From Eledone cirrhosa (taxonomy: Eukaryota): 64,000 nt of DNA. A model generated the notes under the pieces. It was given only the letters and a program-made list of their open reading frames with translations. It was not told where the DNA came from and did not search any database. A program made the translations under genes and the position numbers. Where the stretch lies: the NCBI GenBank assembly GCA_964016885.1, contig OZ024743.1:45632001-45696000 (forward strand), read 5' to 3'. Of the stretch, positions 2,368 to 63,071 are shown in pieces (within the stretch, counting starts at the first letter, position 1; every line of letters starts with the position of its first letter).

Positions 2368-2709
2368 GGAAAGTTATATTTAAATTGTTGGGTTAACAAC
2401 GAGTAAATATTTATAACTGATATAAAAGCACTCAACAAGTATTTGGAGTATATTTATGATATTAAATAAATGGAAACTATATTTATAAAACCATATTTAT
2501 TTCGTTATATATATTTCAGGGATATCATATTAACAATATGTTATGCCGTCTTCAGACAAAATACAATATAAACAGTTTATTTATAAGACTGTTTATATTG
2601 TATTTTGTCTGAAGACGGCATAACATATTGTTAATATGATATCCCTGAAATATATATAACGAAATAAATATGGTTTTATAAATATAGTTTCCATTTATTT
2701 AATATCATA
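2368..2709 (-). mobile_element. Non-coding foldback PLE-derived element with hammerhead, in (TA)n
   Basis: Perfect inverted arms of about 120 bp (2456-2576 / 2589-2709) and a unique tail at 2368-2455. HHR at 2602-2665: ATTTTGT-CTGAAGA...GAAA-TATATATA-ACGAAAT, 7-bp stem I. Confidence 0.8.
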
Positions 2710-2732
2710 TATATATATATATATATATATAT

Positions 2733-3330
2733 TAGAAAGTGAGGTTTTTTTTACAAAATGAAAAATAACCGAGGTGTCCTACACGAGTGAAAGTATAAAG
2801 AAAAAGAGATGAAATCGAAAATGCAACTGGAGTCTTATTTTTTTTTTAAATATATATATTTATTTGGTTCCTTTACCGGTTTCGCAGTTCTTCTGCTTTT
2901 TAAAAGGTGAGTTGAGATGGAGGGTCTGTGGTTTTTCTCACATCTGGTTGGTCTCTGAATGTTACTTGTTTTATATGGAAAAAGTGGCTCGAAATACCAG
3001 GTTTTTCGAGAAGTAATTTGATTGGTTTGTCAATAATTATAATAAATTTCGCGCCAGTTCGCGTTACAATAGTTCTTCAAATAAGAGAGGGGGGTTGTCA
3101 CAGGTTGTTTTTTCATATATGAGTGTTTGAATTTCTTTTTACTTGAAAAAAGGAGGTTCACGAAGGCTTTTTTTTAGTTGGTTATAAATGAAATTTGGCT
3201 GTCACGTGAACAAGTTTTCATTACATTTTTGCGCCCTCATTTGGAAAACTATTCTGTAGTCTTTATAGTGAATGTTATGACAATGGTCAGAAATAATGAT
3301 ATTTGTTTATTGAAAAATAAATTTTCAATA
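2733..3330 (-). mobile_element. Solo pLTR/3' end of Neptune-type PLE
   Basis: Clearly homologous to 33521-34110; degenerate HHR at 2868-2908; abuts (TA)n. Confidence 0.75.
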
Positions 3331-4629
3331 ACCAAATATCATTATTTCTGAAGACAGCATATATATGTGTAGGTATGTATATTCCCTCTGATAGTTTGTA
3401 AAATGTTTACTTAGATCTATATGATATACATACCAACACACACATATATATCCTAGAAACGATCGTAAAATGATGAATTTTTTAATATAAGGAACTGTTT
3501 CTTTGTTTTTATTCATTGTTTTTATTAATATATATATATATATATATATATATATATATATATATATATATATATATATATATATATAGGAACAAGTAAG
3601 ACCCCGACGGCTGAGCTCAAGCCGTTTCGACGGCTAAGTCTGTACTGAATGAACATTTATTAAATAGCCGAACTTATCAAGGGGTAATTCCATATATGGT
3701 CAAAGAGATAATCACCAGGATTGGTCACATCACAAGTTAGTAGTAAATCTGTGATGGCAAGTTGGTGGGGGAAGGGGTAGCTAAACCTGCCGGTAGGAGA
3801 AAAAGGGAGAGGGGGTGGAGTAGACCCATTCATGCGTTGGTAGTGCCAGCTACAGCTGGGTGTGAAGTCAAAGAGGATACTGGGGAGGGGAAGGGGAGGA
3901 GGTCGAAACGGTAAGTAGAACAATGAAGGGTAAAACTAAAAGGTACTGAGAGAGAAAAAAAAAATAAATAAGCAAAGTTTGGTTACTAAGACTTAGGTCT
4001 CTCGCTATTGCTAGGCTAAAGAAATACATAAATAAATAAATAAACAAATAAGTGAATAAAAGAAAAGATAAATAAATTTTTAAAAAAAAAATATATATAT
4101 ATATATATAATGTAGAATAAAAAAATAAATAATAATAATAATAGAAATAAACTAGTAAACTAGGTGGGACGGAAATAAAGGGACCCTTATACGAGGTATA
4201 AGTGCGTGTATCGTACGGTGACGGGTCAACAAAGGGGGGGGCCAGAATACTAAAGAGACTACCACGAAATAATAAAGGTTTCTACCCCAATCACAGGGCC
4301 AGCGACCACCCAGTGCAAGAAAGTAAACTAGTACGAGAATATAATTCAGGGTCCCGCAAAAAAATACTAGTGCTAACTCTAAGGGTACCGCCACGAAACA
4401 AAAAGTCTTATGCAAACTACATGAAAGATCGTACGAAGTAAAAATAAAGAACGGAAAATTAATACAGGAACGTCCCCCCCCCCCCCCAAAAAAAAAGGGA
4501 AAAAGAAGAAAGAAATACTGGATAAACGAGAAGATAAAGCAAAGATGCCACTAAGAAATATAGAAGACTCGGAAAAAAGGGACAGCGGTCGGAGAAGGGG
4601 GCGAGTATCCGAAGTCTAACACCGATTTC

Positions 4630-60655: not shown

Positions 60656-61549
60656 ACACACATATATATATATATATATATGTATGTATATATATATATA
60701 TATATATATATATATATATATATATATATATATATATATATATATATATATATATAATTATATATATATATATATAATTATATTAATAAATGGAATCAAT
60801 TACGAATCGCAATACATCCTCGCCGATTAACGAACGTTTTGAACACCAACAGCAACACTTATCAAATATAGAAATAGAAATGAAATATATTGTTCAAATA
60901 GCCGGGTAAAAAATAATTCGGATTATATAGTGACGGCTGACACGTCTTTATATTTTCATTGATTTTAGTTTCAGTTTTACTTAAATTTTGAAGTAAAATT
61001 GCTTGTCAAATCTTTGAAGTTGTATTTTAGTATTACAAATCTTGTTGGAGATAATGGAACTGGATACTGTTATTATGACACGTTATTGTCTTCAAGATAT
61101 CAAATGTTTAATGAGTTGTGAAGAGATATTTCAATGACGTCAGTAATTTGTAACGTTATCACATTCTTCTTTTTCGTTTATTTTTGTGTATTTTGGGGCG
61201 TTATTTATTTTGTCTTGTTATTATTTTTGTAAATAAAGATGCGTATCACTTGTTGATAACGATAGAAAAGGGAATGTTTTAACAAGCCACTTGACACATT
61301 CATTTAGTTAAAAGCACTTAACACTTCAATTATACACATAATCTAAATATTTTCATACAATACAAATTCACACTTCCCTGGAAGTGAGATATAACAAGAA
61401 AGGATCTTGTTTGTTTTATTTTGACTATATGTATGTGTGTGTATGTGTGTTACATTATATTATATTATATATATATATATATATATATATATATATATAT
61501 ATACGTATATATATATATATATATATATATATATATATATATATATGTA

Positions 61550-62490
61550 CACGTACATATATATATATATGTACACGTACATATATATATATACAGACGT
61601 ACAGTAGTATGTATATATATATACATACATGCACACATATATATATGTACGTATGGATTCACCGAACATTTATTATAATGCTCGGTGTGTTTGTAAACAA
61701 ACATCCCGTATTAAGCCGTAGTGTCCAGCAACCATCGTTGCTCGTTTGTTCAACACTGACAAAGGAACGCTGTACTAGTTTAAAGCTTATTAGCTATCGT
61801 CAGCAACGTATACCTTCCTGCCAGATTGTTGAACGTATATACTTACCTTATGCATATTAACGGCTGAGTAGCCCAATTTGCATATCGAGTGAGTTAATTG
61901 GCCGGATGCACCGAAAACGATAAACGGAAAAAATGAAACGAAATTTCATTACCCACTGTTAGTACGGCTGTTACTTAAATATAAGTATGTACACGTACAT
62001 ACATATATGTATACAGACGTACAGTAGTATGTATATATATATATACATGCATGCACACATAACGTTTATCGTTTTCGGTGCACCCGGCCAATTAACCCAC
62101 TCGATATGCAAATTGGGCTACTCAGCCGTTAGTATGCATAAGGTAAGTATATACGTTCAACAATCTTGCAGGAAGGTATACGTTGCTGACGATAGCTAAT
62201 AAGCTTGAAACTAGTACAGCGTTCCTTTGTCAGTGTTGAACAAACATGCAACGACGGTTGCTGGACACTACGGCTTAATATGGGATGTTTGTTTACAAAC
62301 ACACCGAGCATTATAATAAATGTTCGGTGAATCCATACGTACATATATATATATGTGTGCATGTATGTATATATATATACATACTACTGTACGTCTGTAT
62401 ACATATATGTATGTACGTGTACATACTTATATTTAAGTAACAGCAGTACTAAGAGTGGGAAATGAAATTTCGTTTCATTTTTTCCGTTTA
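61550..62490. mobile_element. Second copy of the 28837-family tandem/inverted hammerhead element
   Basis: Inversion near 62060; HHRs at 62180-62222 (+) and about 61766-61809 (-). Confidence 0.85.
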
Positions 62491-62544
62491 TATATATATA
62501 TATATATATATATATATATATATATTTATTTATCTAGATATTTA

Positions 62545-63071
62545 TTTAGGTTTGTTGGTTCACCACTGGTTAGAACTGGTCATTCCGTATGGTCAATCTC
62601 GATGTAATATTATGTAGAGTACTCAACGTAATGCAACTCACCCGTCTTTGTTTGTGTAGTTAGTGGTGCGAGTACGGAGTTAATTATTATAAAATAACAG
62701 GAGGCTGGACTGGTGTAAATCCTTGAAAGGTATATTATACTATGATCACTTCAATGACCGGGTATCAGTATGAATCCGGTGATATCATCAGGTATTCGAA
62801 ATATAACAAAGGAATATAACAGATAAAATCCATGGGACTGAAAATCAGAGGCAAGAGGACGACCGACTATGGTAGAAGCTGCTAAATAGTCAGTCGTCCT
62901 CTTGTCTCTGATTTTCAGCCCCATGGATTTTATCTGTTATATTCCTTTGTTATATTTCGAATACCTGATGATATCACCGGATTCATACTGATACCCGGTC
63001 ATTGAAATGATCATAGTATAATAAACCTTTGAAGGATTTACACCAGTCCAGCCTCCTGTTATTTTATAATT
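62545..63071 (-). mobile_element. Foldback hammerhead element (~185-bp arms) in (TA)n
   Basis: Arms 62686-62870 / 62887-63071. HHR 62961-63019: ATAC-CTGATGA...ACCGG..CCGGT..GAAATGATCATA-GTAT. Confidence 0.85.

Follow-up and report, generated by a model that had tools for sequence, protein, structure and literature searches.

Penelope-like elements (PLEs) carry pseudo-long terminal repeats (pLTRs), inverted ends and a one-sided tail, and the latter two are presented in the parts of Craig et al. 2021 (PMC8557442) covered here as undefined features of the transposition cycle. What sets the boundary between arm and tail is the question raised by a stretch of 64,000 nucleotides (nt) of Eledone cirrhosa (GCA_964016885.1, contig OZ024743.1, positions 45,632,001 to 45,696,000, forward strand), hereafter the window, an AT-rich, animal-type sequence crowded with (TA)n runs. 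A first-pass annotation had described in it a short covarying stem, RYTC..YYGARY, lying a few nucleotides past the arm end in about ten unrelated families of foldback or hammerhead elements, and had read it as a cis signal through which many non-coding families use a Naiad-type enzyme. Our analysis supports a shared covarying cis signal that sets the arm/tail boundary, and places it in PLEs of the Hydra type, where it is duplicated. From sequence comparison we consider it fairly probable that each member of this hairpin pair docks the reverse transcriptase (RT), copying being started a few bases upstream on nicked (TA)n.

The 11 sites named in the first-pass annotation were all found in the window exactly as written. 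The plain motif is common, with 94 matches on both strands, so that the signal resides in its position and not in its presence. A list of foldback arms built by self-BLAST only, blind to the motif, comprised 18 arms from 11 families (designated by letters), after exclusion of four internal hairpins (3287, 19435, 19811, 58507) and of two widely separated inverted pairs, which are not (TA)n-flanked foldbacks. The fixed offset claimed earlier was recovered in 15 of the 18 arms, the stem starting 3-9 nt past the arm end in 14 of them and 13 nt past it in one. At the family level, the stem lies inside the first 14 nt of the tail in 9 of 11 families, compared with a maximum of 3 in 20,000 base shuffles of the tails, for a motif that was picked post hoc; neither family F (13129-13317) nor family O (28835-29940 / 61594-62488) has it there. 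The tails are otherwise essentially unrelated, nominal similarity being detected in just 3 of 66 tail pairs. Further copies, marked as additional below, and degenerate second hairpins were also identified. The features concerned are the following, hairpin 1 being the copy at the arm/tail boundary and hairpin 2 the second copy beyond it.

3589-7605 (+): coding PLE insertion in (TA)n, 5'-truncated and frameshifted, of Hydra type by domain order and motifs; inverted arm 3589-4623, RT/thumb/GIY-YIG pieces 4564-6224, 3' arm to 7528, tail 7529-7605
7534-7557 (+): hairpin 1 of coding family C (ACTC/GAGT, TT bulge, upper helix of 4 base pairs, bp), 5 nt beyond the arm end at 7528
2430-2449 (-): hairpin 1 of foldback family A (arms 2455-2706)
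12097-12115 (+): hairpin 1 of foldback family D, copy 1
12280-12298 (-): hairpin 1 of family D, copy 2; additional, absent from the earlier list
13513-13544 (-): hairpin 1 of the family G terminal copy, with a G-U closing pair; additional
14197-14228 (-): hairpin 1 of the family G tandem copy, a non-coding 684-nt unit
14097-14114 (-): degenerate hairpin 2 of family G, recognised by eye (TCTC/GAGA, TT bulge, first upper pair mismatched), starting 7 nt beyond the tail end of the terminal copy
13866-13923 (-): hammerhead core of family G with a long stem II, in the same sense as the hairpin
14796-14819 (+): hairpin 1 of a short foldback copy of family C; additional
14992-15025 (-): hairpin 1 of foldback family I (arms 15030-15791)
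16064-16088 (-): hairpin 1 of foldback family J (arms 16094-16422)
16552-16575 (-): hairpin 1 of the family K terminal tail (GTTC/GAAC); additional
17360-17383 (+): hairpin 1 of the family K tandem copy, a non-coding 530-nt unit
17477-17497 (+): degenerate hairpin 2 of family K, recognised by eye (5' strand one base short, TC bulge, GAGC), starting 5 nt beyond the terminal tail end
17224-17261 (+): hammerhead core of family K, with a mirror copy at 16674-16711 (-)
23547-23570 (+): hairpin 1 of family C within a duplicate of 14487-14867, hence not independent; additional
28622-28667 (-): hairpin of an orphan insertion that consists of the tail only and is bordered by (TA)n runs
30404-30425 (+): atypical orphan hairpin whose lower stem, TT and 3' ACT fit the clade pattern, with A.A instead of a first upper pair and GAAAC 39 nt upstream
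36473-36496 (-): hairpin 1 of a short foldback copy of family C; additional
58857-58889 (-): hairpin 1 of foldback family Q, with a 7-bp upper helix
62621-62680 (-): hairpin 1 of foldback family P, with a long loop

Two rearranged segments accompany these copies. The sequences 14487-14867 and 23234-23618 form a 385-nt duplicate in which a family G element end and the adjoining family C foldback were copied as one block, and 58595-58715 (+) holds a relative of family C that has lost the 5' half of the hairpin, its short foldback running straight into the distal tail.

The structure is richer than the initial motif. A lower helix of 4 bp is followed on the 3' side by a 2-nt U-N bulge and surmounted by a covarying upper helix, the “YY” of the motif corresponding to a U-U or U-C bulge beneath this extra helix. 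Once these two pyrimidines are taken as a bulge, the bases enclosed by the lower stem pair as well in every arm-end copy. Among the compensatory changes reported earlier, the A-T/G-C and C-G/T-A swaps are present in the window, whereas the difference between TTGAGT and TCGAGT is a change in the bulge. A pattern requiring at least three upper pairs matched the window 14 times, in every case at a tail, compared with 1.8 +/- 1.3 matches (maximum 5) in 40 block dinucleotide shuffles; with at least two upper pairs there were 17 matches, 15 of them at tails, against 4.3 in the shuffles. As this pattern was derived from these very sites, an outside test was required.

The only coding foldback of the window (3589-7605), flanked by (TA)n on both sides in agreement with the reads, encodes RT pieces (4564-5300) followed by a GIY-YIG-type endonuclease (5682-6224). 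The Naiad-type enzyme proposed earlier does not fit this coding copy, in which the endonuclease follows the RT and is not N-terminal. A Naiad enzyme was also rejected on account of the hammerhead cores located upstream of the hairpin in window families and in the foreign loci described below, canonical hammerheads being absent from Naiad. The pieces have no Pfam match, and a protein search gave no match between longer proteins and the endonuclease piece; they share 44% (residues 202-318) and 34% identity (residues 572-711) with the full-length homologue P0003. In the CxCX5C linker, the CxC is present and a Phe occupies the third Cys position, the full motif being found in relatives; CxxC and CxH surround the conserved E and N without CCHH, as read from the translation and the alignment. 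The region of the N-terminal RWK and DKT motifs is lost by 5' truncation, the homologues that seeded the locus search carrying RW[K] and DK[T/S]. Judged by domain order and motifs, the element is a Hydra-type PLE with a C-terminal endonuclease: a C-terminal GIY-YIG, the linker and CxxC/CxH without CCHH are features of the Hydra clade, and the Naiad endonuclease is N-terminal, according to the sections of PMC8557442 on these clades. No solved structure matches the Hydra profile by sequence; a predicted model of a full Hydra-type protein (pLDDT 96) had as its best Foldseek match the telomerase reverse transcriptase 3DU5 (E 2.6e-9), with a low TM of 0.30.

Near the 3' end of the coding copy, only GAAA and stem III of a hammerhead were found, 44 nt before the hairpin, while full cores are found in families D, G and K and in most foreign loci; Rfam did not detect the hammerheads of the window or of the 12 of 89 foreign loci that were searched. 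Families G and K consist of partial-tandem units, 684 nt long in G and 530 nt in K, that contain a type I hammerhead and whose longest Met-initiated open reading frames (ORFs) reach 67 and 64 amino acids, and as non-coding head-to-tail hammerhead units they would fit non-LTR retrozymes or non-autonomous PLEs. The notion of many non-coding families is borne out only for these two complete tandem units; the remaining families might be 5'-truncated termini of coding families not seen here.

Alignment of Hydra-type homologues retrieved 89 foreign loci from many marine animal samples, distributed in 72 families at 80% identity: 78 metagenomic loci (from the best 80 of 471 confirmed) and 11 from metagenome-assembled genomes. 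Viral contigs yielded one marginal locus (L001, dropped) and two further scans of them were empty. The window-derived pattern recurs in the foreign loci on the sense strand, directly after the hammerhead and before the ORF start, in the order hammerhead, 40-70 nt, hairpin 1, hairpin 2 (59-83 nt on) and ATG of the next ORF. At 34 tandem junctions representing 29 families, where anchors were defined by the lower stem and a two-base 3' flank, with stem types fixed after viewing the data, hairpin 1 was found in 27 families, 42-67 nt past the hammerhead GAAA, hairpin 2 in 24, mostly 11-35 nt ahead of the ORF start, and both in 22, spaced by 59-83 nt. Control anchors were rare (2 in 5,189 nt of antisense and 6 in 40,291 nt of ORF sequence). 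The same hairpin and geometry in independent Hydra-type loci strengthen the proposal of a shared boundary-fixing signal; the description of a single signal is right for the arm/tail boundary and incomplete in that full elements carry two, the second fixing the far end of the tail.

A covariance model, as the first-pass annotation had called for, was trained on 50 foreign hairpins alone and gave 145 matches in 73 of the 89 loci (58 of 72 families), the training sequences matching by construction. None of these matches lies inside a plus-strand ORF match. They fall into two classes of distance past the hammerhead, 43-72 and 102-144 nt, with two outliers, and 136 are on the plus strand, 8 of the 9 minus-strand matches belonging to loci with inverted or oppositely oriented copies (L017, L041, L066, L083). 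Applied to the window, this foreign-trained model produced ten matches at E<1, nine of which are the named sites or copies thereof. The position of the hairpin, 42-72 nt beyond the GAAA, also ruled out a sub-structure of the hammerhead.

Pairing above the bulge was assessed with anchors selected blind to bulge and upper helix. Of the 52 anchors with a 2-nt bulge (TT, TC or TA in the foreign loci, the 3' flank being ACTNT), 51 have a Watson-Crick first upper pair, the exception being a double count of L077; with bulges of 0, 1, 3 and 4 nt, the pair forms in 1, 0, 5 and 7 anchors. This pair swaps from T-A to C-G between foreign families, and the lower stem is changed on both strands in L060 (TCTC/GAGA) and in L082 and L085 (GCAC/GTGC). 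The fitted covariance-model alignment shows 96.8% pairing, with two-sided changes chiefly in the upper helix, a figure biased by the fitting and by relatedness. Wobble pairs in the upper helix are G-U in 7 cases and A-C in 2; although the numbers are small, this excess suggests that the sense strand folds.

Two groups of Hydra-type loci call for separate mention. In L005 (at 2182) and L079 (at 116), which have no canonical hammerhead, GTTC/GAAC variants of the hairpin occur, and this long-untranslated-region (long-UTR) subgroup may use a drifted signal. Loci L080-L090 are eleven contigs of GTDB bacterial genomes carrying these animal-type retroelements, which are likely host DNA in the assemblies.

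Insertion ends were examined in 78 hammerhead copies lying outside junctions. A junction copy suitable for comparison was available for 20 of them, and 14 of these end 0-8 nt before hairpin 1 (8 copies) or hairpin 2 (6 copies, one at a contig end). The remainder comprises a contig end, three cross-family matches and two discordant copies considered below. The clustering has a P value of 2e-10 when all positions are allowed, 5e-6 after TA/AT and 4e-3 after ATA/TAT; with each family entered a single time (10 of 11), the three nulls give 1e-9, 2e-6 and 1e-4. Hairpin spacing predicts that (TA)n should be met 53-67 nt past the hairpin start, as is seen in ten terminal copies. In the window, the tandem units of G and K run past the tail end into the degenerate second hairpins 7 and 5 nt on, and in 3,847 and 3,610 reads of the same species label, family C gives way to (AT)n at 7528, 5 nt short of the stem, with a read depth above 10,000 on this end. 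Since ends mostly fall a few nucleotides before either hairpin, the PLE “tail” corresponds to the spacer between two putative start signals, and its length follows the hairpin spacing. Window shuffles, foreign-locus controls and these end-position statistics together rule out a chance origin of the hairpin.

The hairpins could instead act in expression, as promoter boxes or in autoregulation near the ATG, ends clustering merely through AT-rich flanks that match (TA)n. Hairpin 2 indeed lies mostly just ahead of the ORF, promoters are reported within pLTRs in the literature covered, and the P value drops to 4e-3 in the strictest AT-aware null. It is nevertheless significant under all three nulls, variable loops and covarying pairs speak against double-stranded DNA boxes, and the hairpins are kept in the non-coding units of G and K, so that we give this explanation hardly any credence.

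Six foreign foldbacks (in L056, L066, L083 twice, L087 and L089) repeat the geometry, their arm stopping 4-6 nt before a hairpin, which in L056 is hairpin 2. Foldbacks might also arise if a complementary DNA (cDNA) primed at the tail end snapped back and its second strand stalled before hairpin 1, leaving a shorter arm. Self-priming at palindromic junctions has been proposed for inverted PLE structures (PMC3846280, in the part covered), and many window foldbacks have a short central spacer or none. Such a stop element would leave unexplained the tail end located at an equal distance before the second hairpin, the two ends of L083 that both lie before hairpin 1 and the inverted arm of L056 that starts from before hairpin 2, and is very improbable in our view.

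Both hairpins are preceded at -8 to -6 by a conserved patch of TA, the sequence of the (TA)n target itself, TAT or ATA being found at -10..-3 in 36 of 51 hairpins compared with 11-16 in six control windows. This patch bears on two further explanations. In the first, the hairpins act as DNA, the GIY-YIG endonuclease recognising a single-stranded or extruded form and cutting at the TA patch, so that ends would be cleavage sites. The patch looks like the target that the endonuclease cuts, and the position and wobble data suit the sense DNA strand equally; moreover, the tail was ascribed to endonuclease-mediated resolution by Craig 2021 (PMC8557442) and, as cited by Frangieh 2024 (PMC11167929), the D. 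virilis tail is needed for endonuclease recognition of plasmid DNA, in the passages covered. Hairpin 2 is however missing from the finished insertion and yet sets an end at the same distance as hairpin 1, which a start at the level of the template explains simply, and the two ends of a Poseidon PLE are RT start sites on RNA in vitro (PMC11167929, same passages). We regard action as DNA as the chief alternative, though an unlikely one. In the second, a host nuclease or termination would make RNA 3' ends just upstream of the hairpins, subsequently copied by ordinary end-primed target-primed reverse transcription. A short and constant spacing from a bulged stem is what structure-guided cleavage typically shows. 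RNA-seq read ends also coincide with the sites in the Anolis element (PMC11167929), but the same work, as far as covered, shows the Poseidon protein initiating internally, in the absence of a free 3' end, and a conserved target-matching patch at the end sites is what priming would lead one to expect. RNA processing appears quite improbable on this evidence.

Several observations weigh against RT docking by an RNA hairpin. Wobble pairs cannot tell RNA from sense-strand single-stranded DNA, and the thermodynamic stability of the hairpin is marginal: among 10 window copies, 3 have the full bulged fold as their minimum free energy structure, 3 others keep the lower stem only or a near variant and 4 fold differently (z -2.2 to +0.4). 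The lower stem is near-invariant abroad (GCTC/GAGC in 48 of 52 foreign anchors) and so resembles a sequence signal as much as a helix; in hairpin 2, the upper helix frequently comprises just 1 bp. At E<=10, the foreign-trained model leaves families G, J, K and Q of the window undetected, and 16 of the 89 loci have no model match, several being short contigs and about 8 having long UTRs without a canonical hammerhead. The second hairpins of G and K are degenerate, and hairpin 2 of family C was not recovered because reads on 7150-7609 showed nothing past the tail. As to the ends, one copy stops 12 nt before hairpin 1, L077 fits neither site, and same-family copies of L019, L029 and L085 end within or just past the hammerhead in the BLAST version of the comparison.

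In the mechanism that we favour, start-site docking of the RT, the folding strand would be sense RNA, from a transcript that is circular or has remained an uncleaved tandem: hammerhead cleavage would put both hairpins near the 5' end of the monomer, so that the template would need to be an uncleaved multimer or a circle. The hairpin-bound protein would anneal the TA patch to the 3' terminus of the cut (TA)n and begin reverse transcription there. A start before hairpin 1 would produce an end without tail, and a start before hairpin 2 would have hairpin 1 and the spacer copied as the tail. Should both ends of one cut target be primed, the two cDNAs would meet head to head in a foldback with a tail on one side, or possibly on neither, as in L083. 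The non-coding tandem units of G and K, which keep the hairpins, would borrow the enzyme in trans.

A more specific version, which we advance only tentatively, is a duplicated RNA docking code in which two identical bulged hairpins load two RT protomers, each with its own TA primer patch, and prime both (TA)n ends from one RNA. If true, a single rule would account for the tail, the inverted pLTR and the mobilisation of non-coding partners, the sister group of telomerase would gain a telomerase-like RNA module combining anchor and alignment, and a tag of about 30 nt would become available for steering cargo RNA into (TA)n.

Comparable modules are known in other systems. In telomerase RNA, the template boundary or anchor helix, to which protein binds, sits at a constant distance from the alignment region, a short stretch that matches the primer. 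The proposed module would work alike, with the differences that its helix is 3' of the start site, is present twice and leads to a long cDNA instead of repeats, the comparison being one of function. The 3' stem-loops shared by long and short interspersed elements and the R2 3' UTR element are short RNA structures that likely recruit the RT and let non-autonomous elements ride along. They lie upstream of a terminal start, whereas the Hydra-type start is internal and upstream of the structure, which its own cDNA leaves uncopied.

The closest PLE counterpart is PAc, a Poseidon element of Anolis, whose in vitro reverse transcription starts at two internal sites bracketing the tail, with unprocessed RNA as main substrate (PMC11167929, in the part covered), a preference that fits the uncleaved template proposed above. 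Two start sites bracketing the tail, an AT-rich target and a stem-loop at the start region are common to both systems. PAc differs in belonging to another clade and in having one AC-rich stem-loop inside the ORF, for which the covered text describes no cross-family consensus, covariation or duplicated signal, whereas the Hydra-type hairpins are two, nearly identical and bulged, located in the pLTR towards the 5' UTR, and each follows, on the 3' side, the start site assigned to it; the tail measures 55-120 nt in Hydra-type elements and 30-40 in PAc.

In protein motifs, insertion into (TA)n, a hammerhead close to the 3' end and pLTR/inverted/tail architecture, the elements studied here correspond to the Hydra clade of Craig et al. 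2021 (PMC8557442), whose covered parts describe the hammerheads and protein motifs, not these hairpins, and attribute the tail to probable endonuclease resolution. Inspection by eye of the six new Hydra consensus sequences in its File S7, among the supplementary material covered, showed that Hydra-2_Amil and Hydra-2_Ajap end with the hairpin, that Hydra-1_Ajap has two hairpin copies at its 5' end, that Hydra-1_Amil and Hydra-1_Crog contain weak hairpin forms and that Hydra-1_Obim ends without tail. A search of that supplement for six diagnostic 9-mers, some of which are masked by line breaks, returned 7 matches, 4 at Hydra termini and 3 internal-looking in Naiad/Chlamys; the string search found none at the termini in the Naiad/Chlamys consensus files. 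Non-LTR retrozymes have been described as non-autonomous PLE derivatives (10.64898/2026.07.22.740005), being hammerhead-bearing non-coding tandem units related to pLTRs, like G and K; this work, in the part covered, names no cis signal recruiting an enzyme, for which the hairpin pair is a candidate. No description of the hairpin or of a duplicated signal was found in the full-text literature covered, and Rfam returned for the window and 12 of the 89 loci only sub-threshold microsatellite-type matches, none on a hairpin. The duplicated bulged hairpin may accordingly represent a new clade-wide variant of RT-positioning RNA signals.

The other elements of the window delimit this signal. A role as a general PLE signal was ruled out, the hairpin being absent from the Neptune-type 3' ends of the window, two Penelope-type hammerhead fragments and family O. 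The Neptune-type PLE at 33520-36397 (-) is decayed, with a Zn-finger-like linker and a GIY-YIG Pfam match, a second 3' fragment lies at 2733-3527, and no Hydra hairpin was found at the ends of either. Short fragments with a canonical minimal hammerhead at 2175-2348 (+), 59317-59490 (+) and 30200-30252 (-) are probably the ends of another PLE family. Family O (28835-30046, 61450-62490) is built of a 431-nt non-coding tandem unit with a hammerhead core and has two end sites about 70-75 nt apart without Hydra hairpin; a CAGCCG/CGGCCG-like word shared 13-17 nt on may be the duplicated signal of another clade. A diverged relative of family G at 11405-11935 (+) ends at the no-tail site, and its hammerhead stem II covaries with that of G (GTTC/GAAC versus GCTC/GAGC), the same stem types as in the tail hairpin by coincidence. 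Distant inverted pairs around foldback clusters (28728-28821 / 30047-30141 and 61385-61465 / 63801-63881) may represent older MITE-like or split elements. Two families of non-LTR retrotransposon ORFs occur in several tandem copies at 43905-56950, with an RVT_1 match in 52765-55176, and a Cys-rich open frame of 337 codons without Pfam match at 20691-21704 (-) is possibly a host exon or another mobile element.

For one clade, these results would provide a precise rule for the origin of the one-sided tail and inverted ends of PLEs, and they single out bases whose mutation could be assessed in the in vitro system already established for a Poseidon PLE. They offer a candidate signal by which retrozyme-like non-coding repeats may recruit an enzyme, as well as a sequence marker to find and orient Hydra-dependent non-coding repeats, which are abundant in this genome. 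The RTs of PLEs being the sister group of telomerase, an RNA anchor of this kind would be of evolutionary interest.

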